A stretch of 61,397 bases of DNA from a virus (IMGVR_UViG_3300042566_000075:1-61397); one strand, 5' to 3'; shown: positions 6,225 through 55,436, counted from the stretch's first letter. The notes: generated by a model from the sequence alone, not told the origin. Translations and numbers: made by a program.

Positions 6225-6294
6225 GGAAGTTTGCTCCTTCCGTTAGGCACACTTTAACCCCCGGTTGCTCACTCAGCCGGGGGTTTTTATTTTT
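6225..6294 (+). ncRNA. candidate anti-Shine-Dalgarno small RNA 1 (hairpin with UUUGCUC loop plus intrinsic terminator)
   Basis: Stem GGAAG 6225-6229 / CTTCC 6237-6241. 6228-6241 is complementary over 10-12 nt to nine phage RBSs. Terminator follows. Confidence 0.6.
6256..6294 (+). terminator. rho-independent terminator at the convergence of replication and late transcription
   Basis: AACCCCCGGTTG-CTCACT-CAGCCGGGGGTT followed by a T-rich tract. Confidence 0.85.
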
Positions 6295-9200
6295 CCGGTG
6301 CGGCTGCTTGAATACCCGGCAGTGCAAACGGCGCTTCCTTCTTAGTGAAGGTTGAACCGCGCATCTGGAGGTCCCGCTCACGCTTGAACGCGTCGTAGGA
6401 GTTCTGAACAGTTTCTTCCGTAACAACCAGTGGCTCGACGGGGTGCTTTTTGTTGTATTCCACGAGCTTACGCCCTGCCGCGTCCATGTCGGTACGGTCT
6501 CGACTACCGTTTGTTTCGAAGTTGTACATCGCTTCGTTGAGGTCCCGTAGAAGCGACGTGCGTTGTTTTTCCGCGGTAGCGAATAGTTTGTTCCGCGCAG
6601 CGCGCTCCTTCTGGATTTGCGCTAGTTTTGTGGAGCCGAAGCCGGAAAGCTGAGCACCCAGTTGCGAAGAGGTTATCTCTGACTTAGCCAGCATCGGTAG
6701 TTCGCCGCGTGTTTCCGCGCCTTCTTCGGACAAACGGTACGTAGTAGCTACACCCTTAAATGCAGCGGGGAGAACTTTCTCCAGACCGCGAACTACGTCA
6801 CCTTTATACATGTCGGTGAGACCTTCACCGATGCCGGTAATTAGCGAGAGTCCCGGCACGTTAGCTTCGAGTGTCCGGAAAATAGTTTCACTAGTGGTAT
6901 CCGCCGGTTTACCTTCACGGAACCAGAGACCATCAAAAGTAGTACGTGATCCGATGTTAATGTCGGATAGCTCGGATATTGGGCCATTTACCAATATGTC
7001 GCTCAAGCGGTGCTGCAAGCCATCTATACCCGGAATGGTAATTTCCCCGAACTTACTAGGCATAAACTCGTACCGGAACCTGTAGTCAGAGTCGTTAGCG
7101 GTATAAGGGTTGCGCAGACGGCGAAGCTGCGCCTCCTCGTCATCATCGTCAGCCTCAAGCATATCTATGATAGTAGCAATAGTGCTATACAGCGGGAAAC
7201 CAGTTATGCCGTGGAACAAACCACCCATAAGCAAGACGCCCGTCAGTTCGTTCATGGCCTTTAGCCGGTCTTCGACAGACAGAAAGCCTGTCTTGCCACC
7301 CGTCAAAATGCGACGGAAGTTGTTATAGAAGAACGTAGTGGTGTTAACGGCGTACTGCTTAAAGAGAAACAACGCACGGCCAACGTCAGTACCCATCAAA
7401 CGAGGGCGGTTGAAGTCGCTGTAGTTACCCAACGTATCGTTTACGACCCCCACTGCCTTATCAACAGCAGCGTCGAAGTCTTTAGATTTGTTGTACTCCA
7501 ACTCGAAAGCCATCATAAAAGCTATTTCGCGGGTGATACGCTCCGAGGTGTTAAACAACACGGACATGCCGTTTATCGTGGACTCAGCAAGCTGTCCCGG
7601 AGTATACTTAGAAGCTCGGTCGGGCGTAGCTCGACTATCGAGAATACCCGCTACCTGAGTTTCAAAGACAGAACGCTCGTCACGAGCCATGGCAAAAGCC
7701 CGCTTTAGTACCGGGTTGGACCGCACAAACTGAGACTCACCGACAGTAGGTCCAGTATAGGATAGCTCCCCGTCGTCTTCCTCGACGATACCTATAGAGT
7801 CCCATATCTTGGAATACTTAGCCAGCATGATCGAAGACTTGGCGTAGCCGTAATCAGTCCATAGGCGCGGCATCACGCGGACAGGTATACCCGTTGTTTG
7901 CGCTACTGCGGTAGCAGCAGAGGTAAGGAACCAAACAAACGCAGCGCGGTTCAGTCTCGTGACAACGCGACCCGGTTCCTCTGGATTTATCTGCTCTAGT
8001 GCACGCTCTCCGATTTCCACGACGAAGGACTCAAGGCGCGCAGCTTCATCTAGCGGGAAGCCATCAAGGGAAGCCTTCGCTTCTTCGATAGTGTTTTTAA
8101 TACGCTGAGTGTACCGTAGACTGGTAAGCTGGTTAGCGTACTGAAAAGCAGTGGTTTTAAAGTTGCGGAACACATCTGCGCTAAAACCCGTCACGTTATC
8201 AGCGTGTAGGAATTGCTTGCGGATGCTCCGCTCAGGCAGTGTCATCAGGTAAACTTGGTATATCTGGTCTTTAATAGCGCTTACATCGACCTTGCCTTGG
8301 GTAGACGCTTTGTTGATGACCGAGAATATCTCCTGCAACATCCCGCTCTCTTCTTGGAAATTTTCCCGCAGAGAAGTGATGTCGTTACCAATCCGGAATA
8401 TACCATCGGTCCGAGGTACCTTTAGCTCGCGGGCGCGTTTGCGCAGAAAATTGTTACGTGCCCGCGCGCTTTCAAAAGCATAGAACTCACGCCCAGCATC
8501 CCCCTTGCCGACACGTAGCCAGTAGTCGCCGTAACGCTTAAAGGGAAAGTACTGCTCAGGAAAAATCGCTGGGTCAACATCAGGAAACTCGTCGTCGGAC
8601 GACTCTAGCTTACTTACGCGTTCTTTCTCCCGCTCAAGGCGCACGGCCTTCAAAAGAGCTTTCTTAGAAGCGGGGTCGATATCCAGCTTTTTGATTTGCT
8701 CGTCGAGCAGTGTGCGTGTGGTGCTGAGCATATCTTTGTAGTAGTCACGTATCTCTACGTATTGCTTATGCCCATTTTCTTGCTTACCTAGCTCTTCCCA
8801 CAGGTCGTACACCTCTTCGATCTGCGTCCGACGTTGGGTCAACTTGCCTTTAAAAGCAGCTTTTTGTTTAGGTGTAGCGGCTTTGTCCGCAATCAAAGCT
8901 TCATATCGCCGTACAACAGGGTCGTTAACAAGGGCGTCCGCCACTGTGTCATGGGCAGTCGGGTCCACACGATTTAGACGCGCAAGATGCATAGTGCTGC
9001 CCAGCACCTTTTGGCCGTTCTTACCCACGAACTTGGCGAAGCGCTGTGATATCTTAGCGAACCCACTGAGGTAAGCATTACGTTCTGCTCGCGCTTCATC
9101 TTCGAGAGTGGCTATACGCCGCAGGGCGGGCACTTCGCCTTCTTTCCATGCAATAATCCCGTCGGAGGGTAGCGCGTACAAGATACGTTTGAGCATAGTA

Positions 9201-12200
9201 TCGCCAATAGCGTTGTAGCGATCCTTCAGGCCGCCGAGGAAATCAGCAGCAGTGTGCCCTTCGATGGTGGTGCCAATACCTTCATCCAATATGCTCTTTG
9301 TCTCCGCACGGACGTCTCCATCGGGAAAGTCTTGGGCGGCGTTTGACAGCTGCACTTTACGCAAGCCCCGACTAATTTTCTTGTCGGATTTCTCAGCCTT
9401 CTTAGCTATTTTCTCAGCTTTAGCTGCCTTACGTTTTTGGAACCGTGTGCTTGCCGGTCCGGCTTTATTACCTTCGCGCACGGCACGGTCATGGGCCATC
9501 GCAAGAATAGTGGTAATCTCCGCGTCAGAAAAAGCTGCCTTGATGCGCATACGACGAGCAAAGTCTTTTACGATAGCAGCTAACTTAGCAAACATACTCG
9601 CTTCGATCCGCCCTGCTTCAGACCGCTGTGCAAGTACTTCCTCGACTGCACGGGCAAGTGGGTCTGTATCTCCGCTATAAGCGTTTGGGTTTTGCGCACG
9701 CCAAGCGTCGGTCTCGGCCCGTAGGTTACGGTTGGTATCATACATACCCCGCATCATCTTATCCAGACGCTGCCGAAACTGCTTCGCAAGACCGATATGA
9801 CCCAGCGTTTCATGGAAAAGAGTAGCTATGGCTTCTTCAGCAGTGTTGAGGTTATCAGCCACGATATAGACGTTACCGTCAGTATCCACTACGCCAGAAG
9901 GACTTAGCGCCTCTCCGCTAGTGATAGCCCCTTGAACTGAAGCAGGTAAGTCAGCCACCGACTGGACAACACTTGGTGCTTGCACGCCTGTGCGTTGCGC
10001 TACAGCTGCTACAATGGGAGTAACTTGGTCTACCGTGATATTACCGGGTTCACCGGGACGGAAGCGTTCGCCACTTATGGCCCGTTCAGCATATCGGGTC
10101 TTAGCCCCTTCGAGGACCGCACGAATTTCTTCGACTGGTTTACGACGGCTTTCAGTGGCAGTGGCAAGGAGGTTGTATGCCTTATCGTCTATCTGTTGCC
10201 CAACCTCTTCGTCCCAACGTGCAGTTTCAATCTCCTCAAGGAGAACGTCATAAGGGTCGGTTTCCGGCGCTACTTCCTCAACGGGTGCAACAGCTACCTC
10301 AGGTGCGATCTCTTCGGCTACTGGTGCGGGCTCAAGTGCGACCTCTTCGGTTACTGGCGCAACTTCTTCGGTTGCTAGCTCACGCGCTGCAATCTCTTGC
10401 CGCAGGGTTGCCTCGGCTTCAGCGTCCGCAGCTTCTTGTGCTGCTAGTTCTTGACGTCGCGTATCGACATAACCTTGTACATCTTCCTGTACAGCTACAT
10501 CGGGCGCAGCCACTATCTCAGGCGCAGCCGCTATCTCAGGCGCAGCCGCTATCTCAGGCGCAGCCGCTATCTCAGGCGCAGCCGCTATCTCAGGCGCAGC
10601 CGCTATCTCAGGCGCAGCCGCTATCTCAGGCGTAGGTGCAGGCGCAATGCCCACTTCACGCGCGCTTGCTTGGGCTATCGTTGGGATGGAGTCAGGGGCG
10701 GGGGCAGTGACTGATTTAATCGCAGCAGCAACAGGAGCTGCAGCTTGCACATCTAGTGGAGGAGCTGCAGGTGCAGCCTCAACAGTAGCCGCAGGAGGCG
10801 GAGGTGGGGCAGCAAACTTCTTGCCAGTAACCGCTTCCAGCGCAACCACGGGGTCACCACCATGCTTACCATTCGCAAGCTGGTTCTTAGCCATATCAAA
10901 CTGCTTTTGGTCAACGTCGTTCACATTGACGAGGGGATTATTGAGTATCGTGTCGTTCAGTAGCTGCCTAGCCGTGTCAACGCGTGTAGTCAGCTTGACT
11001 TTCTTATCCGCAAGGATGTTCTTAGCTTCGTCTAGTGCACCGACTCCCGCGTCCGTGCCAGTTGTAGGAACTGATACGCCAGAAACAGACTGCTCCAGTC
11101 CTCCTCCGACAGTCTCTCCAACGTCTGCAGCACCCGGTGCGGATGATGCGGTTCCGATATCAGCAGCAGCGCCTGCTCCACTTCCTCCGAGGTCATCCAC
11201 TCCGGTATCAGCATCAGCGACATCTATAGCTCCTTCCGCAGCTTCAAGGTTACGACGTGCAACCGCTTCAGCGACTTCTTGCTTCATGTTATATGCGGTG
11301 CGTAGGCGAGCGACCTCTGCTTCAAACGCAGCTTCTTCCGCTGGCATGCCCGCACGAAGCGCGGCAGTCTCAACCCGCTTAGCTACATTTTCTTCCTGAC
11401 GCGTTAACCGTCGGTCACCAAAGCCTTCAGTCGCACCTGCCACTGCACCTAGACCCGCGCCAGCAATACCTTCAAGCGTACCGGAACTAACCACGCCGCG
11501 CATGGTGTCAACGTCAAAGCCTTCGCGTTGAAGAGCGAGGTTCGTGGCAAGTTGTTCTTGTGCTCCCTGAACAAACTCAGGGACACCTTCCTTAGCTGCG
11601 ACACCCAATGCACGGCGACCTACGCCTTTAGCAGCTGCCTCTCCAGCTTCCGCTGCGGCAAGACGCCCAAACACACGCTGGCCTACCACCCTAGATAGAG
11701 CGCCTTCAATACCAGAAACACCTGATACCGCGCCTAAGCCGCCGCTAAGTAGGATTTGACCAAGGTTTTTCCCACTATATGCTTGCGCTGCGTCGGCAAG
11801 TGCTTCGGCCTTAGCTTCTGGTACACCTGCTTTTATATATTCTTCGCGCACTGCGTCATATATAGCGTTCTTAGCGGTACCTAGCCCCATGACGCCGCCG
11901 ACGAGAGCACCTGTACCCCCAACAACAGCGGCAGGAGCACCCGCATAAGTAGCAGCGGCAGTAGCCCCTATGGGTGCCGCCGCCGTACCAAAAGCCTGTG
12001 TAAGTGTATCAATCGGAGCTACAGCAAAGGCATTAATACCTGCGGCCACCTGCTGAAGAACGCCTTTGTTTTCGGCTTCTTTTAAGATTTTAGACTGCTT
12101 TTGTGCATCCTCTTTAGAGGACGCAGACATATATTCGTCAACCATCCCCTGCACATCTTTGATTGCTTTACGGACTTTTGTCCCTGCACCCGCAGCACCA

Positions 12201-12514
12201 GCGATAGCCTCAATACCGGCCCCGGTGCCTTTCATAATCCCCATGGGTATATCAGCTAAAAAGGCAAGTGGTTTACCTACAAAAGGTATTTTCTCTAACG
12301 CTGTCTCTTTTACGGGTGTTGGCTGCGCAGCTTGGGTTTGAACCTTTTTCTTTGGTCGGCCTTTAGCCAGATGGTCTGCAATCTGCTCAAAGGAGTAGCC
12401 AGCAGCCTGCGCACCTTGGACATCGAATTTATGCTCGCCCGCAAGGAAATAGGCTATTTGCGCGTCAGAGTATCCGGCCCTACGCGCAGCATCTATATCA
12501 AAAGTGCGGGGCAT
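6287..12514 (-). CDS. large internal virion/ejection polyvalent protein (2075 aa) with zincin-like HExxxH and PLxRFG-like motifs
   Basis: LFHETLGHIG motif, YFPFKRYGDY motif, duplicated N-terminal FDxxxAxxAGYS motif, last gene of the late operon, RBS CAGGAG. Confidence 0.75.
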   Translation of the reverse strand: MPRTFDIDAARRAGYSDAQIAYFLAGEHKFDVQGAQAAGYSFEQIADHLAKGRPKKKVQTQAAQPTPVKETALEKIPFVGKPLAFLADIPMGIMKGTGAGIEAIAGAAGAGTKVRKAIKDVQGMVDEYMSASSKEDAQKQSKILKEAENKGVLQQVAAGINAFAVAPIDTLTQAFGTAAAPIGATAAATYAGAPAAVVGGTGALVGGVMGLGTAKNAIYDAVREEYIKAGVPEAKAEALADAAQAYSGKNLGQILLSGGLGAVSGVSGIEGALSRVVGQRVFGRLAAAEAGEAAAKGVGRRALGVAAKEGVPEFVQGAQEQLATNLALQREGFDVDTMRGVVSSGTLEGIAGAGLGAVAGATEGFGDRRLTRQEENVAKRVETAALRAGMPAEEAAFEAEVARLRTAYNMKQEVAEAVARRNLEAAEGAIDVADADTGVDDLGGSGAGAAADIGTASSAPGAADVGETVGGGLEQSVSGVSVPTTGTDAGVGALDEAKNILADKKVKLTTRVDTARQLLNDTILNNPLVNVNDVDQKQFDMAKNQLANGKHGGDPVVALEAVTGKKFAAPPPPPAATVEAAPAAPPLDVQAAAPVAAAIKSVTAPAPDSIPTIAQASAREVGIAPAPTPEIAAAPEIAAAPEIAAAPEIAAAPEIAAAPEIAAAPEIVAAPDVAVQEDVQGYVDTRRQELAAQEAADAEAEATLRQEIAARELATEEVAPVTEEVALEPAPVAEEIAPEVAVAPVEEVAPETDPYDVLLEEIETARWDEEVGQQIDDKAYNLLATATESRRKPVEEIRAVLEGAKTRYAERAISGERFRPGEPGNITVDQVTPIVAAVAQRTGVQAPSVVQSVADLPASVQGAITSGEALSPSGVVDTDGNVYIVADNLNTAEEAIATLFHETLGHIGLAKQFRQRLDKMMRGMYDTNRNLRAETDAWRAQNPNAYSGDTDPLARAVEEVLAQRSEAGRIEASMFAKLAAIVKDFARRMRIKAAFSDAEITTILAMAHDRAVREGNKAGPASTRFQKRKAAKAEKIAKKAEKSDKKISRGLRKVQLSNAAQDFPDGDVRAETKSILDEGIGTTIEGHTAADFLGGLKDRYNAIGDTMLKRILYALPSDGIIAWKEGEVPALRRIATLEDEARAERNAYLSGFAKISQRFAKFVGKNGQKVLGSTMHLARLNRVDPTAHDTVADALVNDPVVRRYEALIADKAATPKQKAAFKGKLTQRRTQIEEVYDLWEELGKQENGHKQYVEIRDYYKDMLSTTRTLLDEQIKKLDIDPASKKALLKAVRLEREKERVSKLESSDDEFPDVDPAIFPEQYFPFKRYGDYWLRVGKGDAGREFYAFESARARNNFLRKRARELKVPRTDGIFRIGNDITSLRENFQEESGMLQEIFSVINKASTQGKVDVSAIKDQIYQVYLMTLPERSIRKQFLHADNVTGFSADVFRNFKTTAFQYANQLTSLRYTQRIKNTIEEAKASLDGFPLDEAARLESFVVEIGERALEQINPEEPGRVVTRLNRAAFVWFLTSAATAVAQTTGIPVRVMPRLWTDYGYAKSSIMLAKYSKIWDSIGIVEEDDGELSYTGPTVGESQFVRSNPVLKRAFAMARDERSVFETQVAGILDSRATPDRASKYTPGQLAESTINGMSVLFNTSERITREIAFMMAFELEYNKSKDFDAAVDKAVGVVNDTLGNYSDFNRPRLMGTDVGRALFLFKQYAVNTTTFFYNNFRRILTGGKTGFLSVEDRLKAMNELTGVLLMGGLFHGITGFPLYSTIATIIDMLEADDDDEEAQLRRLRNPYTANDSDYRFRYEFMPSKFGEITIPGIDGLQHRLSDILVNGPISELSDINIGSRTTFDGLWFREGKPADTTSETIFRTLEANVPGLSLITGIGEGLTDMYKGDVVRGLEKVLPAAFKGVATTYRLSEEGAETRGELPMLAKSEITSSQLGAQLSGFGSTKLAQIQKERAARNKLFATAEKQRTSLLRDLNEAMYNFETNGSRDRTDMDAAGRKLVEYNKKHPVEPLVVTEETVQNSYDAFKRERDLQMRGSTFTKKEAPFALPGIQAAAPEK
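10503..10632. repeat. 18-bp tandem repeat x7 (GGCGCAGCCGCTATCTCA) encoding PEIAAA on the minus strand
   Basis: Six identical units plus one with a single mismatch. Confidence 0.95.
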
Positions 12515-15346: not shown

Positions 15347-15349
15347 AAC

Positions 15350-47122: not shown

Positions 47123-47133
47123 CAAAGTGAGGA

Positions 47134-47521: not shown

Positions 47522-47676
47522 CCGAACAACCAACCAAAGACCGCAACTACTACCGCATGCTCACCAACAACGAGCTTATCGCCACCGCCAAGGAACGCTT
47601 ACACCTAACAGAGTTAGAGCAGGTGCTAACCGAGCGGTTACTAAAAGCCGAGCGCGAGAGGAAGAACAATGACTAA
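47518..47676 (+). CDS. 52-aa hypothetical protein (not in ORF track)
   Basis: ATGA overlap, AAGGA RBS. Confidence 0.6.
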   Translation: MTEQPTKDRNYYRMLTNNELIATAKERLHLTELEQVLTERLLKAERERKNND

Positions 47677-47767
47677 CACACTACTACATATAGCAGCCGA
47701 GATATTCTTCGTAAGCGCAGGTATCTTCGCAGTGTGGGCCATCCACACAACCATCAAGGGGAAATGA
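47669..47767 (+). CDS. 32-aa single-TM peptide (not in ORF track)
   Basis: MTNTLLHIAAEIFFVSAGIFAVWAIHTTIKGK. GAGG RBS, fills the gap. Confidence 0.55.
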   Translation: MTNTLLHIAAEIFFVSAGIFAVWAIHTTIKGK

Positions 47768-47768
47768 C

Positions 47769-48185
47769 ATGGGTTATCGGTCAGAAGTAGATGTAGTTAT
47801 CTACGCACCAGTGGACAGCGGCACATCATACCCGTTGCTCAAGCTGTGGTTCGACGAGAACTACCCCGTCAAGGAAGCCAAGGACGAATGGGAAGCGAGG
47901 ATTACCTACGACCCAGAGAGCCGAGGCATCTCCGTCTACTACAATGACGTGAAGTGGTATGACACCTACGAACATCCGCAAGCGGTGGAGAGAGTGTTCG
48001 ATGCCATCGACCGACTGCTAGACGAGCAAGCAGTGTTGGGCGACCCCACGGCGTTCAACATAGCATGGGAGTTTGTGCGCCTTGGCGAGGAAGACCAAGA
48101 CACCGAGATAAGGATGAGCGCCAACGCAGATGCGGTAATCGCAGTGAACCGCTCAACAGAGATATCGTTTCAATCACAAGCCTAA
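47769..48185 (+). CDS. acidic early protein (MGYRSEV...KWY...FVRLGE type)
   Basis: 138-aa ORF in the early operon. Confidence 0.75.
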   Translation: MGYRSEVDVVIYAPVDSGTSYPLLKLWFDENYPVKEAKDEWEARITYDPESRGISVYYNDVKWYDTYEHPQAVERVFDAIDRLLDEQAVLGDPTAFNIAWEFVRLGEEDQDTEIRMSANADAVIAVNRSTEISFQSQA

Positions 48186-48207
48186 CAAAGTTAGAAGGAG
48201 CAAACAC

Positions 48208-49152
48208 ATGGGCTGGAATAATCACTACCGCAACTGGGACATACCCAGACTTGCATCATACAACGACGCAGTGAAGCGCGAGGCGACAGTCAAACCTATT
48301 CGCGGCGATGCTAACGGAACTAAGCCGCTGGGTGCGCGCAACAAGAAATACTACAACATACGCAAGGAGGGTAATGACATCGTGGTGCGGATGCATGCCA
48401 CGGACATCGTGCGTTACCATCCAGATAATACGCTAACCATACAGAATGGTGGCTGGGTATCGCCCTCGACGCACGACATGTTCAACATGTTACTTGGGCT
48501 ACATATGCGCACCTTCCACTACAGGGCTTGGGTTACTTGCTACATGCGCAGGGCCATAGGGTCAAACGCGCCTGAGATTGTGCATGGCGAGTGGCGGCTA
48601 CCTAACAACGTGCCAGTGAGGATTGTCCCGCACGAAGGCCACTGGCTACTCGACGACATGGAAGAGAACGTGACGCATGCGGTCAACCGCAAGGCAGCTA
48701 ACAAAGTTAGGAAGGAATACGCAGGGTTTCGGACATACCTCTCCGCAATGACCAAGCTGCGCACCGAGTATGTATCGCAGCCGCGCTGGAATGGGCCTGA
48801 TGTGACCCTACCCGTGGTGAAGGTAAGCCGCAGTGAGCTTGAGGCGCACAACCTCATAGACTACACCGCTGTGGTGGAAGCTAACCGCAAGTGCGCGTCA
48901 CAAGGAGACAACCTCAAGGGACTGATACGTAGCGACAAGCCGGAGGATAACTACCGAGCCTTGCTTACTATCATGAGAAGTGCCCACGAGGGACGGTATT
49001 GGATTAGCTCCGAGGGTATATCCATCGCACCAGAGCGCATAACCAAAACGTTCGAAGAACTAGTCATGTTCATGCACCGCTATGAGGTGCTGGAGCGCAA
49101 GCCAGCGAAGCGGGGTGTGCCGACACGGGACCGCTATATAAATTGGTTCTAA
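48208..49152 (+). CDS. hypothetical early protein (314 aa)
   Basis: GAAGGAGCAAAC RBS. Confidence 0.8.
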   Translation: MGWNNHYRNWDIPRLASYNDAVKREATVKPIRGDANGTKPLGARNKKYYNIRKEGNDIVVRMHATDIVRYHPDNTLTIQNGGWVSPSTHDMFNMLLGLHMRTFHYRAWVTCYMRRAIGSNAPEIVHGEWRLPNNVPVRIVPHEGHWLLDDMEENVTHAVNRKAANKVRKEYAGFRTYLSAMTKLRTEYVSQPRWNGPDVTLPVVKVSRSELEAHNLIDYTAVVEANRKCASQGDNLKGLIRSDKPEDNYRALLTIMRSAHEGRYWISSEGISIAPERITKTFEELVMFMHRYEVLERKPAKRGVPTRDRYINWF

Positions 49153-49228
49153 CAAAGTTAGAGGTCCCCGACCTCGTGCCCACATCACTTGACTTGGGTA
49201 TATTATTGTGCTACAATAAAAAGAAAAA
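49149..49228 (+). promoter_or_regulatory. early promoter module B
   Basis: Palindrome, CCCGACCTCGTGCCCACAT, TTGACT 49189-49194, 17 nt, TG-n-TACAAT 49212-49217. Confidence 0.85.
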
Positions 49229-49291
49229 GCTGGGAAATCAGCCACCTAGAGTAAACAAACCTAACAAAGTTACACACGAAGGAGCAATATA

Positions 49292-50359
49292 ATGTCTATT
49301 GATTTTGGTTCAAACATCTCGCTTGCCGAAGCCGCAGAGCTTATCGCAGCTATCCCCGACAATCGGTTCCTACTTGAGGGTGAGCCTGGGATTGGCAAGT
49401 CCAGTATCATGAAGTCGCTCAAGGCCAAGCTAGGTGACCGCTACGTCTATGCCTACTTTGACTGCGCTCAGAAAGACCTTGGCGACATCGCCATGCCGAG
49501 CGTGAACCGCGAGCTACGGGTAACAGAGTATTTCCCCAATGCTGCGCTCCAGTTGCAGCATGGCAAGCCAGCAGTCATCATGCTTGACGAGTTTGCTAAG
49601 GCTCCGCCGCCTGTGCAGAATATGCTTCACCCGCTACTCGAAGAACACAACCCACGGCTAGGCGACATTGAGCTACATCCAGACTCAATCGTGTTCCTTA
49701 CGTCTAACTTGTCAAGCGATGGTGTTGGCGATGTTATCAAGGGCCATACTCTTAACAGAGTATCCAGAGTGCGCGTAGCCAAACCAGACAGCGACCAGTG
49801 GCTTGAGTGGGCTATCAACAACGACATCGAGCCTGTTGTCATGGCTTGGGTAAAGCAGTTCCCTCATGCGCTGGCTTCATACACTGACGGCACGCAGAAC
49901 GAGAACGCATATATCTACAACCCCAAGGCTATGCAAAAGTCGTATGTCAGCCCACGCTCTTTGTCTCGTGCTTCTAACATAGTTAGGCGTCGTGAGCAGG
50001 TATCATCCAACGCTCTTACCGCTGCGCTATCAGGCACAATCGGTGAGGCAGCAGCGCGGGATATGCAAGCCTACATCACATACCAAGACCAGCTACCGAC
50101 ATGGGAACACATCACATCCAAGCCCAATGATGCGGCTATCCCTGCGTCAGCAGGTGCATGTGCGGTGCTTATCTTCGGTGCAATCATGAAGGTGACCAAA
50201 GAGACAATGGCTCCGTTCATGACCTACCTGTCTCGCTTCGAACCAGAGTGGCAAGCATGCTTCGCTATTAACATTGCGAAGAACCCACAGCGTCAGTCGG
50301 TTGCGTTTTCATCCGCTGCGTTCGCTAACTGGGTGCGGGACAATGAGGACTTACTCTAA
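49292..50359 (+). CDS. MoxR/dynein-related AAA+ ATPase
   Basis: GEPGIGKS Walker A, IMLDEF Walker B, TSN sensor I, LNR and SPRS motifs. Confidence 0.88.
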   Translation: MSIDFGSNISLAEAAELIAAIPDNRFLLEGEPGIGKSSIMKSLKAKLGDRYVYAYFDCAQKDLGDIAMPSVNRELRVTEYFPNAALQLQHGKPAVIMLDEFAKAPPPVQNMLHPLLEEHNPRLGDIELHPDSIVFLTSNLSSDGVGDVIKGHTLNRVSRVRVAKPDSDQWLEWAINNDIEPVVMAWVKQFPHALASYTDGTQNENAYIYNPKAMQKSYVSPRSLSRASNIVRRREQVSSNALTAALSGTIGEAAARDMQAYITYQDQLPTWEHITSKPNDAAIPASAGACAVLIFGAIMKVTKETMAPFMTYLSRFEPEWQACFAINIAKNPQRQSVAFSSAAFANWVRDNEDLL

Positions 50360-50381
50360 TACCAACACAAGGAGCAAACTA

Positions 50382-51578
50382 ATGGATATGCAGAAAGCAG
50401 AGCGTAAGCTCAAGAAAGTCAAGATTAACCTCATGCGCAACCCCATGTTCGCATTGTGGTCTGGCATCATGATGGTCGGTAAGACTAGCGTAGCAGAGGA
50501 CGTGCCAACGGCATGCACCAATGGCCGCGACGAGATATACGGCTTGGAGTTCATAACAAAGTTAGACGAGAAGCAGCTAGGGTTCGTCGTGCTACACGAG
50601 AACATGCACAAGGGCTTACGCCACATGACAACATGGCAGAAGCTCCGAGCAGAGAACCCACGCCTAGCTAACATCGCAATGGACCATGTAATCAACCTTA
50701 TGATTATGGAGATGGACCCGAACGAGCAAGTCATCGCCATGCCTCGCCTTGATGATGGCACACCGATGGCGTGTTACGATACCAAATACAAAGGCATGAA
50801 CACCAAGCAAGTCTTCGACCTACTGAAGCAGGACAATCCAGATGGCGAAGGTGGCGAAGGCTTCGACGAGCATGACTGGGATGGGGCCAAGGAGATGACC
50901 GCCGAGGACCGCAAGGAACTAGAGCGCGAGGTGGACCAAGCCCTACGCCAAGGCCAGATAGCAGCTATGAAAGCTACGGGTAAAGGTGGGCTAAGTGTCA
51001 ACCGAGAGCTAGGCGACATGCTCCAGCCACAGATAGACTGGCGCGAAGCACTGCGTGAGTTTGTGTCCGCTACCTGCAATGCCAAGGATGCGTCATCATG
51101 GCGCAGGGTCAACAGGCGCATGCTGGGCCAAGATGTGTATCTTCCTACGCTAGTAGGGGAGAAGGTCGGACATATCGCTATCGGCATAGACACAAGTGGC
51201 TCTATCGGTGCGGACGAACTCAATGTGTTCCTGTCCGAGGTCAAGGCTATCGTCGAGGAGGTGCATCCCGACAAGCTAGACCTCATCTATTGGGATGGCA
51301 ACGTAGCGGGGCATGAGGTCTACGACATGGCAACTATGTCTAACCTTGTTAGCTCTACTAAGCCAGTAGGTGGAGGCGGCACTGACCCAACCTGTATGAT
51401 GCGCTACCTCAAGGAACAGAACATCAAGCCAGAGTGCATCATCCAGCTGACTGACGGGTATGTCTGTGACTGGGGTGACGAGTGGGATGCGCCCATCATG
51501 TGGGTAATCTCAGAGTCGCGCTACACATCGGGACGTATCGTAGCGCCAGTGGGTAAGACTGTGCATATCAAGGGGTAA
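50382..51578 (+). CDS. putative metallopeptidase plus VWA-like domain protein (DUF2201-type)
   Basis: TACTNG, HENMH (HExxH), IDTSGSI MIDAS, GGGGT and LTDG motifs. Start at ATG 50382. Confidence 0.85.
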   Translation: MDMQKAERKLKKVKINLMRNPMFALWSGIMMVGKTSVAEDVPTACTNGRDEIYGLEFITKLDEKQLGFVVLHENMHKGLRHMTTWQKLRAENPRLANIAMDHVINLMIMEMDPNEQVIAMPRLDDGTPMACYDTKYKGMNTKQVFDLLKQDNPDGEGGEGFDEHDWDGAKEMTAEDRKELEREVDQALRQGQIAAMKATGKGGLSVNRELGDMLQPQIDWREALREFVSATCNAKDASSWRRVNRRMLGQDVYLPTLVGEKVGHIAIGIDTSGSIGADELNVFLSEVKAIVEEVHPDKLDLIYWDGNVAGHEVYDMATMSNLVSSTKPVGGGGTDPTCMMRYLKEQNIKPECIIQLTDGYVCDWGDEWDAPIMWVISESRYTSGRIVAPVGKTVHIKG

Positions 51579-51588
51579 GGAGCAAACA

Positions 51589-51834
51589 ATGACTAAAGCA
51601 ATCATACGTTACGGCTACGACAACTATATCGTGGAGGCAGAGGATGCGCTGCGCATACATGAAATCCTAGCCAAGGCTGAACACTACCATAGGAACTACC
51701 GCTCAACAGCAGATGGCGGCACTACCTACCATGTCTGGGAGCAGGACATGAGCAGTGAGATGCGTGACATAACGCTTATGCCCGATGGCCTTTACCGCAT
51801 GGCAAAGCTGGCGGGTAAACCAGAAGATAAATAA
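51589..51834 (+). CDS. hypothetical early protein
   Basis: 81 aa, AAGGAGCAAAC RBS. Confidence 0.75.
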   Translation: MTKAIIRYGYDNYIVEAEDALRIHEILAKAEHYHRNYRSTADGGTTYHVWEQDMSSEMRDITLMPDGLYRMAKLAGKPEDK

Positions 51835-51896
51835 AATACCGGATAGCAAACCGGACGACCTAACTAGGTTACATATAACACAATAGGAGCAAACTA

Positions 51897-52739
51897 ATGA
51901 GCATTACATCTTCGTCGGTTCTTGTCGAACTGAACATCTCCGTCTGGACAGCCAACAAGCTGGACAAGGACACCACCACCAAGCTGACCGCTGACAGCAA
52001 CGCGACTAGCGACGCAGCCCAAGTGCGTAAGAACCTCATGGCTGGCACAACCTTACGCAAGGACATAGCGGACTTCGCTGCGCTGTGCCGCACATGGCAC
52101 AACAGCCAGACCCTACCTTGGGCAGACCGAGGTTCTAGGCTACTACCCACAAGCCTCTTCATGGCATACAAGACCGAGGTTAACGCACGACGCGCTACGT
52201 TCACGCAGTTGGTAGATAAGTTTCGCCTCGAATACCCGAAGCTGATGACCACTGCGGCACAGCACATGGGCGACCTACATGACCCTGCAGATTATCCGAG
52301 CGTGGATGAGGTGATGGACAAGTTTGGCTTCCGCCTTGTGTTCTCTCCTGTGCCAGAGGCGGGTGACTTCCGTGTGGACATACCCAACCAAGAACTCGAC
52401 GCCATACGCAAGGAATATGATGCTAACTTTGTTAGCCGTGTTGACGAAGCCATGCGCACCCCGTGGGAGCAACTGCACAAGATGCTGACCACTATGTCTA
52501 ACAAGCTAGGGCTAGAGGAGAAGACCCGCTGGCACGACACCTTCCTCACGAACGCACAGGAGATGTGCGGGATGCTTACTCACCTCAACCTCACTGGCGA
52601 CCCCAAGCTAGAGGATGCGCGGCGCAAGCTGGAGTCGGCGTTGATTGGCTTGGATATTGATGACCTCAAGGAAAGCGAAGACATCCGCACCAACGTCAAG
52701 GGCAAGCTCGATACAATCCTTTCGGGATTTGATTGGTAA
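51897..52739 (+). CDS. DUF3150-like protein
   Basis: LNISVW..TLPW...G.RLLP...LNLTGDP.L pattern. Linked to the AAA/VWA pair. Confidence 0.65.
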   Translation: MSITSSSVLVELNISVWTANKLDKDTTTKLTADSNATSDAAQVRKNLMAGTTLRKDIADFAALCRTWHNSQTLPWADRGSRLLPTSLFMAYKTEVNARRATFTQLVDKFRLEYPKLMTTAAQHMGDLHDPADYPSVDEVMDKFGFRLVFSPVPEAGDFRVDIPNQELDAIRKEYDANFVSRVDEAMRTPWEQLHKMLTTMSNKLGLEEKTRWHDTFLTNAQEMCGMLTHLNLTGDPKLEDARRKLESALIGLDIDDLKESEDIRTNVKGKLDTILSGFDW

Positions 52740-52762
52740 GGCACAGGTAAGGAGTAACAACA

Positions 52763-53632
52763 ATGACTAAGCAACTATACCCATGCGAGGGTTTCCCGAA
52801 CGTATATATCAACCGCAACCCCGCCTTCGTAGACCGTACTACGCGGTTTGTGGTCCACGACAGGATGCTACCTCTAATAGAGGAGCTGTGTAAGCACCGC
52901 CCACAATGGACGTTTAAATCCCTTAACGCATCAATAAACACAGATGTAGTGGCGGCACATCACTTTGATGTTTATGAGAACGGCCAGTCGCTAGGCGAAA
53001 TCTCCGTTGAGTCAGGCTATCGCGCTGATACAGGGTCGATAACCTATTACCGGTTCGACAACCCAAGGTTGTCCGGTAAGCGCCAGCGCGGTATTTGGAA
53101 TAAAACCAGTAAGCTCGACCTAGCAGTGAAGAACATACTTAAAGCCTTTCACGCTAAGACGTTAGCCGAGACCATTGTAGAGGTCGAGCGACAGATAGAG
53201 GTTAAGCTGAACGAGAATACTAGGACTGCTAATGCAGATTTTGACAGCGGCTTCAGACGCATGGGCGCGTTCCTCACGGGATATGTAATGAGAAACTGGG
53301 ATGCGGTAGCACCTGCGCTAAAGGCAGCGGGCGCACCAGTGCCAGACGACCTGCCTGAGCGTCTTGCCGTTAGGAACGAAGCAGAGGGTGTAGAACTGGC
53401 CTACCGCAACCAAGGAGGGTTTACTATAATCACGCGAGGCAGCGACTACATCATGGTGCGCGGCTTCGGGGACGAGCGAGAGACAGAGGTCAAGTCCAGC
53501 GAACAGCTGACAGACAACATCCGCCGTAACCTTGGCTTCCTCAAACTGACCGAGGGCAGTGCGATTATACCCAACGTAGGTGTGCGACTTAACGAGAGCA
53601 CCTTCTTTGTTATTGATAAGGAACTTGTATGA
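52763..53632 (+). CDS. hypothetical early protein (289 aa)
   Basis: AAGGAGTAAC RBS. Confidence 0.8.
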   Translation: MTKQLYPCEGFPNVYINRNPAFVDRTTRFVVHDRMLPLIEELCKHRPQWTFKSLNASINTDVVAAHHFDVYENGQSLGEISVESGYRADTGSITYYRFDNPRLSGKRQRGIWNKTSKLDLAVKNILKAFHAKTLAETIVEVERQIEVKLNENTRTANADFDSGFRRMGAFLTGYVMRNWDAVAPALKAAGAPVPDDLPERLAVRNEAEGVELAYRNQGGFTIITRGSDYIMVRGFGDERETEVKSSEQLTDNIRRNLGFLKLTEGSAIIPNVGVRLNESTFFVIDKELV

Positions 53633-53805
53633 CCGAGGAACTAAAACGCAAACGCGGACAGCGTGGGCTGGGCAAGCGTCCGGCCTTGGGAGGTCACGTT
53701 ACCATACGCCTATCGAGCGAAGCTATGGACTTCTATAGGAGCTTCCCTAGCTTCACAGCTAAGATGCGTGAAGTCTTAACAGACTACGCTGATACACACA
53801 GATAA
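53629..53805 (+). CDS. 58-aa BrnA-antitoxin-like ribbon-helix-helix protein (not in ORF track)
   Basis: RGQRGLGKRPALGGHVTIRLSSEAMDFYRSFPSFTAKMREVL fits the GRP..VTIRL..V..F...RIN..L layout. ATGA overlap, AAGGA RBS. Confidence 0.7.
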   Translation: MTEELKRKRGQRGLGKRPALGGHVTIRLSSEAMDFYRSFPSFTAKMREVLTDYADTHR

Positions 53806-53863
53806 CATATAGTTGCTCCTAACTATGTTAGACTAGGCCGCCTTTCGGGGCGGTCTTTTTTTT
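53803..53863 (+). ncRNA. candidate anti-Shine-Dalgarno small RNA 2 (3'-UTR hairpin with GCUCCU loop plus terminator)
   Basis: TAACAT(AT)AGTT-GCTCCT-AACTATGTTA hairpin at 53803-53830, then terminator. Confidence 0.5.
53836..53863 (+). terminator. rho-independent terminator ending the early operon
   Basis: GGCCGCCT-TTCG-GGGCGGTC followed by T8. Confidence 0.92.
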
Positions 53864-53875
53864 CTTCATTAGCGT

Positions 53876-53903
53876 TTGACAATGTAAATTGAGGGTGTAT
53901 GGT
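53876..53903 (+). promoter_or_regulatory. sigma70-like middle promoter
   Basis: TTGACA 53876-53881, 16 nt, TATGGT 53898-53903. Confidence 0.6.
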
Positions 53904-53929
53904 GAGGAGCCAAACAAGGAGTAAACAAG

Positions 53930-54130
53930 ATGAATAATACAAGAGAACTTCGCGCATTCCTAGTCGAACAGATGCAGGGTGTAGCTTCGGGTAAGGTCAA
54001 CAGTGAGAAGGCCAAGTCCATTTCCAACCTGTCACAGCAAATCTACAACACCATTAACATCGAAGTGAAGATGGCGTTGTCGAAGGCAAAGCTGAATGGG
54101 CAAAGCCTAGATGCTGTCGAGTTCAATTGA
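53930..54130 (+). CDS. hypothetical protein (66 aa)
   Basis: AAGGAGTAAAC RBS. Confidence 0.75.
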   Translation: MNNTRELRAFLVEQMQGVASGKVNSEKAKSISNLSQQIYNTINIEVKMALSKAKLNGQSLDAVEFN

Positions 54131-54812
54131 CCTAACAGCACTTCCTGATGACCTCGTCCGTCAACTGGAACGCACCGTCACAGACTACGAGCGTAAGCAG
54201 AATAAGCTACGCTCATGGCAAGAGGTGCTTGACCACGGGACGGACGAGGAAATCATGGAGAAAGCGCAGGAGGAGTGCGACAAGGGCGCACCCATTACCT
54301 TTGCACGGAACTACCCTAGGATTGGCTGGCCGTTAATGACAGACCTAGCCCGTGAGATTGTCCCGTACAATATGCGAGACCATCCGCGCAGACCCGTCAT
54401 CATGAAGGGTGCAATAGAAATCTGCTACAGGAGGTTTTCGCTATCAGAGGGCCGCAACGCACCAAACGGCTGGGTAATCCGTGTCTTTGAACGGGCAATG
54501 CGTATGAGCAAGAAGACGCTCATCGAGTGGCAGGAAATATCAGACTTCGCTAGTGAGCTAGCAACTAAGATTGCTAACCGGCATTACGGAGTAACCTACC
54601 ACTTTTGGGACTATACCAGACCCCGAAGGTATGAAGCCCGTCGAGATGAACAATTAGTTTTGATGAGCGGACGCTGGGTTAGCCTACCGCACGAACAATA
54701 TAGAAACGTGCAGATGTTCCAAAAGGTAATCCGCAAGACAGAGAAGCTGGAAGACCGACTGGCACTACTACGCGCAGCAAGGAAAGAACGAGCCGATGGC
54801 AGCAACACCTGA
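54111..54812 (+). CDS. hypothetical protein (233 aa)
   Basis: Long ORF overlapping both neighbours. Confidence 0.7.
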   Translation: MLSSSIDLTALPDDLVRQLERTVTDYERKQNKLRSWQEVLDHGTDEEIMEKAQEECDKGAPITFARNYPRIGWPLMTDLAREIVPYNMRDHPRRPVIMKGAIEICYRRFSLSEGRNAPNGWVIRVFERAMRMSKKTLIEWQEISDFASELATKIANRHYGVTYHFWDYTRPRRYEARRDEQLVLMSGRWVSLPHEQYRNVQMFQKVIRKTEKLEDRLALLRAARKERADGSNT

Positions 54813-55101
54813 GAAGAAAGTGAAGGATAAGGTTAAGTCCATCCTCACTGCACACGAGACATATTTTTTTCTACCCGCAACCCACGGCTTTGGCCGTAGC
54901 GGTGTCCCCGACATTGTAGCCTGTGTGAACGGTTGGTTCCTTGCGATTGAGTGCAAGGCAAACGGTGGTAAGACTACTGCCCTACAGGTGCGCGAGATTG
55001 AAGCGATACGCAGGTCTAACGGCGTAGCCGTAGTAGTAGACGAGACGAACTACGACATGCTCCCTGACCTCATCAAAAAACTGAAAGGGGAAACACGGTG
55101 A
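54796..55101 (+). CDS. VRR-NUC domain nuclease (Holliday junction resolvase-like)
   Basis: TPEKKVK, GVPDIV, AIECKA and TALQ motifs. Confidence 0.88.
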   Translation: MAATPEKKVKDKVKSILTAHETYFFLPATHGFGRSGVPDIVACVNGWFLAIECKANGGKTTALQVREIEAIRRSNGVAVVVDETNYDMLPDLIKKLKGETR

Positions 55102-55394
55102 ACCAAGGTGTAGAGCTTTTACTCCAGCGGATGGATAGCCACCCTGAAGAGTTTAACACACACAACCCAGACAAGCGCGTCCGCGAGAAGTGGCACTGGG
55201 TGACGGGGCCGATTAAGACGCGGATGGACTTTATGAATAGGAACCCAGACGACGACCCAGTGATGCACTTCGAGTCCCTTGGGTTCCTGACAGACCGCGA
55301 AATCCTCATGCTTCATGATAAGTATATGAGCATCCAAGGAGACAGCTTCAGTCGCAGGGTTATGGCTACGCTACTAACAGATGGCGAAGCCTAA
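55098..55394 (+). CDS. hypothetical protein
   Basis: GTGA overlap, 98 aa. Confidence 0.7.
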   Translation: MNQGVELLLQRMDSHPEEFNTHNPDKRVREKWHWVTGPIKTRMDFMNRNPDDDPVMHFESLGFLTDREILMLHDKYMSIQGDSFSRRVMATLLTDGEA

Positions 55395-55436
55395 CAGAGT
55401 TAGGTGTGGATACTATCATAGGAAGGAGCAGAGGCG

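Follow-up and report, generated by a model that had tools for sequence, protein, structure and literature searches.

In T4, the RegB endoribonuclease and the RegA repressor determine a post-transcriptional shut-off at many early Shine-Dalgarno regions, while the late genes are spared; virulent phages, to our knowledge, have so far yielded only a handful of small RNAs. Two RNAs of PAK_P3 and the bands C and D of T4 are described as having no known function (PMC4933390). The c4 antisense RNA of the temperate phages P1 and P7, which serves immunity, hits one operon (icd-ant) with loops that pair around the ribosome-binding site (RBS) of the phage mRNA and block its translation (PMC12197685); a limited literature search and the consulted part of that 2025 review gave no virulent-phage RNA directed at an RBS tag common to many of the phage's own genes. 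Repeated DNA sites are represented by the operators and stoperators of Cluster A mycobacteriophages (L5 gp71 and relatives), reported as asymmetric 13-bp sites, bound by a monomer and oriented with transcription, which are spread genome-wide in these temperate phages and are thought to stop initiation and elongation (PMC9283540). The start-associated SAS/ESAS sequences of Cluster K are still unverified in function as of 2025, according to the accounts consulted.

The window, i.e., the whole 61,397-nucleotide stretch analysed, is a complete 61.4-kb genome of an uncultured phage from lake water, to which 539–552 IMG/VR contigs are related; the phage is virulent-looking and freshwater, and its family is abundant in lakes. 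As the sequence-only reading of this DNA had stated, an integrase is not recognisable among the 77 ORFs scanned (PHROGs on 77, Pfam on 34), and the same scans revealed no gp71-type repressor, no parABS families and no ParA-/ParB-like family; a single small Cro-like HTH protein (77 aa) is encoded at 2901–3134. A search of a phage collection gave no nucleotide match to the window and no match for the small ORF 6016–6207, and the product of e9 shares only 29% identity with cyanophage proteins.

The window resembles Cluster A in its short 13-bp site, present in more than 10 copies in promoter regions and short intergenic gaps and in some cases overlapping stop and start codons (PMC9283540); in contrast to the Cluster A sites as reported there, those of the window are symmetric, restricted to one arm and in 5 of 13 cases within ORFs, and the scans found neither a gp71-like repressor nor an integrase. 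Cluster K, as described, shares with it an extended AGGAG-containing word 3–7 nt before starts in the non-structural half only, commonly with a lineage-specific inverted repeat of variable spacer length in front of it and sometimes with the upstream stop inside the element. However, the consensus there is GGGATAGGAGCCC and the tag here AGGAGCAAA, the repeats there are 17 bp and imperfect while the arms in the window are 5–7 bp and exact, and the accounts consulted describe no complementary RNA hairpin for Cluster K, whereas the window phage has one. The likeness to c4 lies in the pairing of a phage RNA loop around RBSs, but here a single loop matches the tag of about 11 genes in a phage without lysogeny genes; unlike the RegA and RegB proteins, the proposed effector would be an RNA, selective by virtue of a private addition to the Shine-Dalgarno sequence.

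Judging from the sequence, the array of DNA sites and the RBS-complementary RNA element both exist and both are under selection. That they are two independent modules on the plus arm, an operator array for a phage dimer and an anti-RBS small RNA, is a reading with an even chance of being right. The fuller proposal, a trans-acting RNA of ~70 nt, with its invariant loop as an "anti-tag" for early and middle genes, that would switch translation from early to late without a protein repressor, alongside an independent operator array whose binder swaps with its sites, is put forward tentatively, at something short of even. The features on which the RNA module is based are the following:

6189–6217, plus strand: promoter-like TTTACG-17-TATATA over the terminal codons and stop of ORF 6016–6210
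6225–6241, plus strand: hairpin GGAAG, loop TTTGCTC, CTTCC; its AGTTTGCTCCT complements tag AGGAGCAAACT
6224–6294, plus strand: candidate small RNA of ~70 nt with a putative 5' end, comprising the anti-RBS hairpin, a linker, the terminator stem 6256–6285 and a U-run
46920–46928, plus strand: AGGAGCAAA tag of e1
1547, 45685, 48196, 50370, 51578, 51885 and 59685: other AGGAGCAAA tags
49280: AGGAGCAA tag

The tag AGGAGCAAA occurs in 9 copies against 0.52 expected, 8 reading with the plus arm and none with the minus arm, and AGGAGCAA is present 9 times in the plus-arm sense and never in the minus-arm sense; AGGAGCAA(A) represents the Shine-Dalgarno sequence and the spacer before start codons, in the plus (early/replication) arm only. 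The extended form AGGAGCAAAC is found on about 11 plus-arm genes and on no structural gene, and across relatives a start codon follows within 1–8 nt after 343 of 408 copies of GGAGCAA. Early genes, to which the tag had been assigned together with the palindrome, are not its only carriers, because copies are also located in the replication module (1547 and 59685); the enrichment of both elements is real.

The hairpin at 6225–6241 is the strongest result of the analysis, and the second anti-RBS hairpin, which closes the replication block ahead of the terminator 6256–6285, is one of the earlier proposals that hold, being real and conserved with covariation. It is retained in 59 of 67 distinct relatives with stems of the types GGAAG/CTTCC, GAGAG/CTCTC, GCAAG/CTTGC, GACAG/CTGTC and GAAAG/CTTTC; its G-U pairs are compatible with the plus strand only. 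In 49 aligned sequences the five core stem pairs contain no unpaired cell, and the stem covariation score is 0.321 versus 0.110 ± 0.017, a value as high being reached in none of 500 shuffles and all slid controls remaining at or below 0.146. The element is regarded as a candidate small RNA because a promoter-like site precedes the hairpin and a terminator follows it. The window's site matches 8 of 12 consensus positions and lies in a region (6189–6217) outside the scan that gave the promoters P1–P3 listed below; among relatives, a -10-like hexamer ends 4–8 nt 5' of the hairpin in 44 of 60, in non-coding sequence, and TTTACG with a 16–18 nt spacer is present in 37 of 60, the latter conservation not being independent evidence because TTTACG falls within conserved codons (GLR). 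In computational terms, the generic layout of a trans-acting small RNA (promoter-like site, structured seed, intrinsic terminator) is present. No window element reaches the gathering score of any Rfam family. The alpha-proteobacterial mmgR model (RF00519), which has a similar arrangement of small 5' hairpin, C/U stretch of the type GUUUcCUCCCU, linker and terminator, aligns over positions 1–77 with E = 0.0014 in a 131-base search; the window RNA is not a member because it scores 24.9 bits, under the gathering score of 41, and the C/U motif, single-stranded in the mmgR consensus, is in the window RNA within the hairpin loop.

The loop with its closing pairs, AGUUUGCUCCU, is complementary to the tag AGGAGCAAAC, and predicted duplexes of -15 kcal/mol or below are obtained for 11 of 32 plus-arm initiation regions versus 2 of 46 minus-arm ones (Mann-Whitney p = 0.0045). 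AGGAGCA ranks among the top upstream 7-mers in each of the 8 complete genomes whose loop is UGCUCC and does not in those with deviant loops (CGCUCC, AGUUCC; n = 2); a genome with loop UUAGUUC shows enrichment of neither GGAACTA nor GGAGCAA. A finer loop-tag covariation beyond the core AGGAGCA was sought and is not clean, loops CUGCUC and AUGCUC coexisting with GGAGCAAG tags, and the specificity is uncertain because strong Shine-Dalgarno sequences in general would be partners for a GCUCC loop.

This imperfect match beyond AGGAGCA is in favour of a different role, in which the hairpin would be a cis element of the 3' UTR only (a stabiliser, a termination helper or a protein site) with no action on RBSs in trans. 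Its position directly upstream of a terminator closing a long operon fits such a role; the RNA-library run X24 offers no sign of a separate RNA, its few 151-nt contigs (share 0.06) being uninformative as they show neither strand nor ends. Against it, the stem covaries while the loop stays invariant, 11 nucleotides are complementary to the commonest private tag, the -10-like element is conserved in non-coding sequence, and the genomes G006 and G011 lose the canonical loop and the tag enrichment together; a purely cis function is rather unlikely. A trans-acting RNA, whose transcription and direction of effect we infer from the conservation, covariation and complementarity above, would be made downstream of the last plus-arm gene as a ~70-nt molecule with a 5-bp stem and the invariant loop UUUGCUC, and would most likely pair with the tagged initiation regions, so that translation would fall as the RNA accumulates.

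The second module is the palindrome CTAAC-N3-GTTAG, with 13 perfect copies in the window against 0.07 expected (13 were reached in none of 100 shuffles), all confined to 46296–55403; of 7 one-mismatch copies, 6 are within 45578–51860. The early part of the plus arm is organised as follows, palindromes being perfect unless stated:

45578–45590: one-mismatch palindrome CTCACTTTGTTAG, 5' of the e0 promoter region
45698–46180, plus strand: e0, first plus-arm gene; 160 aa, helical, orphan family
46211–46223: one-mismatch palindrome between the e0 stop and terminator 46235–46262; perfect in L005 and L014
46296–46308: palindrome CTAACTTAGTTAG, non-coding, then a CCATGATAGTA box
46395–46407: palindrome CTAACTAAGTTAG, non-coding, then a CCATGATAGTA box
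46793–46805: palindrome 27 nt 5' of the P1 -35
46833–46861, plus strand: sigma-70-type promoter P1, TTGACA-17-TACATT, TG ahead of the second hexamer
46904–46916: palindrome in the e1 5' UTR; AAGGAGCAAA starts 3 nt after
47119–47131: one-mismatch palindrome including the e1 TAA stop, directly ahead of the e2 Shine-Dalgarno sequence
47605–47617: palindrome within small ORF e3b (47518–47676)
48182–48194: palindrome including the e4 TAA stop, 1 nt ahead of the e5 AGGAGCAAA tag
48698–48710: palindrome within e5, coding ANKVR; relatives keep the site and the middle codon varies
49149–49161: palindrome including the e5 TAA stop, 27 nt 5' of the P2 -35
49189–49217, plus strand: sigma-70-type promoter P2, TTGACT-17-TACAAT, TG ahead of the second hexamer
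49261–49273: one-mismatch palindrome in the e6 5' UTR, ahead of AGGAGCAA (49280)
49974–49986: palindrome within e6, coding SNIVR (TCT AAC ATA GTT AGG); in 30 of 61 orthologues
51340–51352: palindrome within e7, coding SNLVS
51860–51872: one-mismatch palindrome between e8 and e9, ahead of AGGAGCAAA (51885)
52423–52435: palindrome within e9, coding ANFVS; a recent gain, only in the window and L019
53629–53805, plus strand: e11, last early gene, RHH-like, 58 aa
53807–53828, plus strand: weak CUCC-loop hairpin (loop 53816–53819) containing TTGCTCCT, complement of AGGAGCAA
53819–53831: palindrome between the e11 stop and the terminator; left arm part of the CUCC-loop hairpin
53835–53856, plus strand: intrinsic terminator closing the early operon
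53876–53903, plus strand: sigma-70-type promoter P3, TTGACA-16-TATGGT
55391–55403: palindrome including the m4 TAA stop; reads as promoter-like CTAACA-17-TATCAT 5' of m5

Eight of the 13 perfect sites are intergenic or on stop codons and five are within ORFs; two are 27 nt upstream of a -35, two adjoin terminators, and the pairs around P1 and P2 (one site upstream of the -35, one in the 5' UTR) are 111–112 bp apart. The adjacency of palindrome and tag claimed earlier is confirmed at 46904/46920 and 48182/48196, while at 49261 and 51860 the palindromes are imperfect (GTTAC). Relatives retain the palindrome on the same arm, mostly in the form CTAACA-N-TGTTAG; the family consensus is a-c-CTAACA-W-TGTTAG-g-t, relaxed to CTAAC-N3-GTTAG in the window's clade, and over 374 non-redundant sites its symmetry extends to the flanks and to the central base (A 0.52, T 0.40). 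Four complete relatives of 60–64 kb have all their 9–12 sites within one stretch of 9–10 kb and none outside, and a fifth has 19–21 sites in 10 kb. Three lineages have CTAACATTGTTAG, CTGATACGTATCAG or TAGTGACAAGTCACTA at intergenic positions that are orthologous and have homologous flanks, and further lineage-specific palindromes are likewise restricted to the plus arm. Sites within ORFs are, as far as codon usage indicates, imposed on the codons: 30 of 61 e6 orthologues read TCT AAC AT(T/A) GTT AG, while those from loci with zero or one site use codons such as AGC, ATC, GTG and CGA, or different residues.

The palindrome would thus be a double-stranded DNA operator, in ~13 copies over the first 9 kb of the plus arm, most likely bound by a symmetric dimer encoded by the phage, which would regulate early transcription through loops around promoters and a block to elongation at gene junctions; binding and its direction of effect are what we infer from the statistics and conservation of the sites. 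The co-occurrence of half-site spacings of 0, 1 and 2 nt in single genomes (L025, L026, L063) is awkward for a rigid dimer.

The best of the candidate binders is e0, by association only. It is present in 16 of the 23 class-A loci listed, and 6 of the other 7 extend only 5–6 kb upstream of e9; three loci bearing other palindromes have a divergent e0, L032 and L033 have neither e0 nor palindromes, and the GTGAC and CTGATAC lineages have unrelated proteins in this first-gene slot, which is flanked by palindromes in all classes examined. L026, with its 12 sites, lacks e0 in all six frames, and, given that early slots are hypervariable in general, the exchange of the slot gene may be fortuitous. 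A DNA-binding fold was not detected in the e0 model (pLDDT 87), for which Foldseek gave nothing at E ≤ 0.001 and VIA a top Z-score of 5.9 (under 8); sequence searches of Pfam and PDB returned no hit, and profile searches of PDB none that could be used. Homologue searching returned 216 hypothetical proteins, none of them named, and protein-atlas look-ups gave unnamed clusters only, with weak leads to DUF3102 (0.81) and Phage_Repressor_c (0.80), neither of which is supported by Pfam on 21 e0 members. Two other proteins were discarded: the Cro-like HTH protein as the binder, since it has the same recognition helix, (S/T)RQ(S/T)(V/I)Y(N/H)WF, across six genomes with five different palindromes, and m4 (55098–55394) as an RHH protein, since it has no RHH look and is restricted to the closest relatives.

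The lack of a phage binder in these searches favours a host protein (a global regulator or a nucleoid protein), lineage-specific palindromes then reflecting different hosts; the invariance of the half-site among phages whose proteins are just 55–60% identical and the loss of the array in some lineages, e.g., L009, agree with this. However, the arrays occupy one arm only, whole sets are swapped at orthologous positions between close relatives, and the first-gene slot changes in parallel with the palindromes, so that a host binder is unlikely and a phage-encoded one is preferred.

The palindromes could also act as RNA hairpins 5' of the RBS, with a role in transcript processing or stability or in the control of translation: for 151 of 402 distinct sites, the ~45 nt downstream include both a Shine-Dalgarno sequence and a start codon, the spacer on the plus strand of the window's clade is far more often AAA than TTT, and variable spacing suits a loop. 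This is very unlikely, as the sequence is invariant and compensatory changes are missing, conservation includes an A and a T that flank the single central base and could not pair in a hairpin, some sites are upstream of promoters or after terminators, and the predicted hairpins do not exceed shuffled sequence in stability (z = 0.42 and -0.67). Among described hairpins and operators, N4-type hairpin promoters were rejected, no RNA polymerase gene being found (a 2075-aa protein has LPD39 and DarB-like matches only) and the right arm overlapping the Shine-Dalgarno sequence in some relatives; the GTTAG operator of MepR, reported in PMC3936728, is not relevant because its half-sites are in the opposite order (GTTAG-N4-CTAAC).

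The sequence-only reading had joined these parts in one switch, in which the RHH protein of the last early gene would bind the palindromes and both hairpins would shut the early programme, acting as a timer or setting up a dormancy without integration that SOS would lift. The presence of both hairpins in the window, the missing integrase and the position of the RHH-like e11 as the final gene ahead of the early terminator are in its favour. The RHH assignment is weak: e11 shows a beta-strand-like HVTIRL followed by two helices, and Pfam BrnA_antitoxin matches 4 of 11 members (best E 0.005), but the window protein scores 14.5 bits against a gathering cut-off of 26.1, the monomer model (pLDDT 68) has helices 30–38 and 40–57 and no strand, and no fold match was obtained by Foldseek and nothing usable by PDB profile searches. 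Across relatives, judging from co-occurrence, e11 is not coupled to the palindromes: its family is in 50 loci, 29 with at least 3 sites and 16 with none, it is absent from L013 and L015 despite 6–7 sites, and near-identical copies occur in the close relatives L012, L011 and L009, with 6, 2 and 0 sites, respectively. The tag is at least as frequent without the palindrome (GGAGCAA at 0.50 per kb in 29 palindrome-less relatives versus 0.32), and the hairpin-terminator module is found in two palindrome-less relatives; the integrated hypothesis thus fails its own refutation test because e11, palindromes, tag and hairpin occur independently in relatives. SOS release was based on LexA-type boxes that are at chance level, GAAC-N7-GAAC having 1 match (45529) versus 1.8 expected and at least one in 77 of 100 shuffles, and CTGT-N8-ACAG 2 matches, both remote in the tail-gene region and none near the early region. 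For lysogeny or dormancy there is nothing in support, since the relatives in bacterial bins are merely phage-sized contigs in three MAGs of discordant taxa. The coupled switch is therefore highly improbable. Two of its components persist: the anti-RBS hairpin at the e11 3' end does overlap a palindrome (TTGCTCCT at 53813 with 53819, in a 9-bp hairpin directly ahead of terminator 53835–53856), and the idea that completed operons yield inhibitors survives, strengthened, for a product of the replication block damping tagged genes, i.e., for the 6225 hairpin only, the e11-end hairpin being thermodynamically weak and limited, by folding, to the window and five close relatives.

The palindrome dispersal, with 13-bp copies some by promoters and some within genes, resembles the OB sites of RK2 and the dispersed centromeres of phage N15, but a role as centromere-like sites, or as KorB/ParB-type loading sites, in plasmid-like maintenance or long-range silencing is barely conceivable, given that the ORFs scanned contain no ParA-/ParB-like family, a carrier state is unsupported and the arrays are restricted to early genes.

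The operator array adds another large uncultured family to the growing number of phages in which a private palindrome marks off the early genes, and the sister lineages constitute an unusually clean natural experiment because they bear different palindromes at orthologous positions, so that the swaps could reveal a new family of DNA-binding regulators. The RNA module matters more: if true, it would be an RNA counterpart of T4 RegA/RegB and, if real, it would provide a simple and portable timing of gene classes through a private ribosome-binding word, as well as a testable explanation for unexplained start-associated sequences in other phages.

Comparison with related phage contigs suggests that the integrated regulation proposed in the sequence-only reading, a single switch joining an RHH protein, operator palindromes, anti-RBS hairpins, LexA/SOS control and dormancy, is largely wrong and that two real modules remain, an array of palindromic operators and a candidate small RNA of ~70 nt. 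The underlying observations were largely right, as the palindrome array, the ribosome-binding tag and the hairpins are all present in the window; their coupling in one two-layer switch is unsupported because the parts occur independently when their co-occurrence across relatives is examined. LexA control finds no support in searches for GAAC-N7-GAAC and CTGT-N8-ACAG boxes, nor does dormancy, since the relatives found in bacterial bins are phage-sized contigs only, in three MAGs of discordant taxa.

The window is a complete IMG/VR virus record (61,397 bp, terminal repeats, completeness rating 100%) with a GC content of 52%, and its genes are divided into two arms with the following features.

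45545 down to 6287 (-): minus arm, with genes for packaging, head, tail and lysis and one for an LPD39/DarB-like virion protein of 2075 aa
45584, past the record's end, to 6210 (+): plus arm, with early and then replication genes (Hjc-like nuclease, PolA, PD-(D/E)XK exonuclease, helicase, primase)
45698-46180 (+): e0, solitary first gene of the plus arm, with its own terminator
Between e0 and e1: non-coding region of 750 bp
46931-53805 (+): early genes e1-e11, terminated at 53835-53856
46833-46861, 49189-49217 and 53876-53903 (+): sigma-70-type promoters P1, P2 and P3
53807-53828 (+): element at the end of e11, with CUCC in the loop and containing TTGCTCCT
2901-3134: Cro-like HTH protein of 77 aa
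6225-6241 (+): hairpin complementary to the tag, downstream of the small last gene 6016-6210

No integrase was found among the window ORFs scanned. The large terminase is related to those of HTVC023P-type pelagiphages and some cyanophages (~50-57% identity); no relative at the nucleotide level was found among cultured phages, and many lake-water metagenomes contain the phage. The giant virion-type protein (6287-12514, (-)) combines an LPD39 domain with DarB-like PHROG matches in the C-terminal half; possibly it is ejected and serves as an anti-restriction or polyvalent protein. Genes e6-e9 (49292-52739) form a module, conserved in over 500 IMG/VR relatives, which encodes a MoxR-type AAA+ ATPase, a DUF2201 metallopeptidase/VWA protein, a small protein and a DUF3150-like protein. 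Right behind P3 lies a variable cassette, genes m1-m2 (53928-54796), which is exchanged for ~230 other letters in lake-water strain contigs. The stretch 46330-46800 holds 18 CTTAC/GTAAG pentamers (consensus ~TTTYCTTACA) in 470 bp, ~13-fold over the genome average, arranged in oppositely oriented blocks around a GC-rich core and an AT-rich run (46626-46645), and is probably a replication origin.

The palindrome CTAAC-N3-GTTAG occurs in 13 copies against 0.07 expected, all within 46296-55403, and seven one-mismatch copies further extend the array. The non-coding region holds three perfect copies, of which one is 27 nt ahead of the P1 -35, and the 5' UTR of e1 holds another; at three the upstream gene (e4, e5, m4) takes its stop codon from the cTAAc, one of these being also 27 nt upstream of P2; one immediately precedes the early terminator and the other five are within ORFs. 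P1 and P2 each have one palindrome upstream and one in the 5' UTR, 111-112 bp apart. In both promoters, the 27 nt that separate the upstream palindrome from the -35 form a near-identical box, CCCGACCTCGTGCCCACAT(G/C)AC (46806-46832 and 49162-49188). A 34-nt direct repeat, 85% identical (46315-46348 and 46412-46445; core CCATGATAGTA), begins 6-7 nt past two palindromes, and the inverted form of its core, TACTATCATAGG, is at 55409-55421, after the palindrome at 55391; palindrome and repeat core together give a promoter-like CTAACW-15/17-GATAGT or TATCAT that is conserved in close relatives.

Relatives were surveyed for the palindrome at 14 loci reached via e6 and in 80 of 539 relatives reached via an e9 profile. 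In the family the palindrome usually reads CTAACA-N-TGTTAG and reaches 22 copies in 12 kb; half-site spacings of 0 and 2 nt are also present, at times within one genome. In four complete relatives all 9-12 palindromes are inside one stretch of 9-10 kb, and a fifth has 19-21 in 10 kb. The consensus of 374 non-redundant sites is symmetric out to a-c...g-t, with A (0.52) or T (0.40) as central base, and the predicted RNA hairpins of the palindromes are no better than those of shuffled sequence. The symmetric consensus and the presence of sites ahead of promoters and past terminators point to recognition of the DNA duplex by a symmetric protein, not to an RNA hairpin. Selection on the palindrome works at the nucleotide level: in e6, 30 of 61 orthologues encode S-N-I-V-(R/S) as TCT AAC AT(T/A) GTT AG, while those from loci with 0 or 1 site have different codons or residues there. 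Palindromes are also gained and lost among relatives, that of e9 being shared, among the orthologues compared, by the window and L019 alone.

Other lineages of the family carry different palindromes in the same arm, including TA-GTGAC-NN-GTCAC-TA (9 copies), CTGATACGTATCAG (8 copies), CTCAC-N4-GTGAG, TTAAC-N4-GTTAA and AACCATGGTT; no array at all was found in relatives L009, L032 and L033. Upstream of e6 and e7, homologous flanks enclose CTAACATTGTTAG in L012, CTGATACGTATCAG in L047 and TAGTGACAAGTCACTA in L050. At L047 6784, L012 1564, L050 8491 and their neighbours, the flanks of the orthologous intergenic spacer are kept and the embedded palindrome is exchanged. Such spacers amount to a naturally occurring set of specificity swaps that lends itself to identifying the binder.

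The best candidate binder is e0, with roughly even chances, because no recognisable DNA-binding fold was found in this all-helical orphan protein by structure and sequence searches and because early slots are variable in general, which counts against it. Of the 23 class-A loci listed, 16 have e0, and six of the seven exceptions extend only 5-6 kb upstream of e9; L026 covers 10 kb upstream of e9, yet is without e0. Divergent forms of e0 accompany three other palindromes (L053, L065, L072), L032 and L033 have neither e0 nor palindromes, and in the GTGAC and CTGATAC lineages its slot is occupied by unrelated proteins (281 and 229 aa); in every class the slot gene is flanked by palindromes. The 77-aa HTH protein cannot set the specificity, since a single recognition helix is kept over five palindrome classes. 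The e11 protein, to which the sequence-only reading had assigned the role of RHH operator protein, has weak evidence of an RHH-like nature and is not coupled to the sites: its family occurs in 29 loci with at least three sites and in 16 with none, it is absent from L013 and L015 (6-7 sites), and near-identical copies in L012, L011 and L009 accompany 6, 2 and 0 sites, respectively.

The two modules would act as separate layers, as proposed from sequence. In the first, a phage-encoded dimer would sit on the palindromes, whose placement around P1 and P2, where genes meet and next to terminators would fit repression through looping and road-blocking; alternatively, it may activate from about -57 to -69. 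For the repression reading, PMC9283540 describes such an arrangement for Cluster A operators/stoperators, but the window array lacks the asymmetry that defines stoperators.

The second layer would act on the tag AGGAGCAA(A), a Shine-Dalgarno sequence with its spacer, which has nine copies of AGGAGCAA in plus-arm sense, including the replication module, and none in minus-arm sense. It is found throughout the family and is independent of the palindrome, since it is frequent in relatives without CTAAC palindromes (0.50 per kb, vs 0.32 per kb in those with them); in both groups pooled, 343 of the 408 copies have a start codon 1-8 nt downstream. Tag and palindrome taken together most resemble the SAS/ESAS of Cluster K mycobacteriophages, elements of still unknown role with an extended Shine-Dalgarno word and an upstream lineage-specific inverted repeat on the non-structural half only.

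Of the two anti-RBS hairpins, the one at 6225-6241 is conserved with covariation and the element is a well-supported candidate small RNA. The preceding gene belongs to a family with 552 IMG/VR relatives, and the 5-bp stem and the loop (N)TTGCTC are kept in 59 of 67 distinct sequences, most of the eight missed by the hairpin search still having C/U-rich anti-Shine-Dalgarno-like stretches. The stems vary (GGAAG/CTTCC 38, GAGAG/CTCTC 6, GCAAG/CTTGC 5, GACAG/CTGTC 4, GAAAG/CTTTC 4) while AG-TTTGCTC-CT is invariant, an 11-nt stretch exactly complementary to AGGAGCAAACT. Across an alignment of 49 sequences, none of the five core pairs shows an unpaired cell; the covariation score is 0.321 vs 0.110 +/- 0.017 (0 of 500 shuffles), with slid controls all <=0.146, and G-U pairs in three sequences are compatible with the plus strand only. 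An intrinsic terminator follows the hairpin; a -10-like TATAnn, starting at or just past the stop codon and ending 4-8 nt before the hairpin, is present in 44 of 60 relatives, with TTTACG 16-18 nt upstream of it in 37. No Rfam family reached its gathering score, the best sub-threshold match being the small RNA mmgR (24.9 bits vs 41). Two relatives without palindromes have the module. The e11-end hairpin, by comparison, is weak (-4.3 to -7.2 kcal/mol; z-scores -2.1 to +0.4) and restricted to the window and five close relatives.

With the loop region, duplexes of <=-15 kcal/mol are predicted for 11 of the 32 initiation regions in the plus arm (e0, e1, e5-e9, m1, m5 and two genes with starts at 1561 and 59698) vs 2 of 46 in the minus arm. 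Among ten complete genomes, AGGAGCA is one of the commonest upstream 7-mers in 8/8 with a UGCUCC loop and in 0/2 with deviant loops; outside this core the match of loop and tag is loose. The outcome proposed for the small RNA resembles that of T4 RegA/RegB. Its proposed manner of action is like that of P1/P7 c4 RNA as described in the review PMC12197685, but it differs from both in having one loop whose target is a tag common to many genes, an arrangement in a phage RNA of which no description was found in the literature searched or in that review. The small RNA, made either from a weak promoter of its own or out of the replication operon's 3' end, would pair with tagged initiation regions and lower their translation, and the structural genes, without the tag, would escape it.
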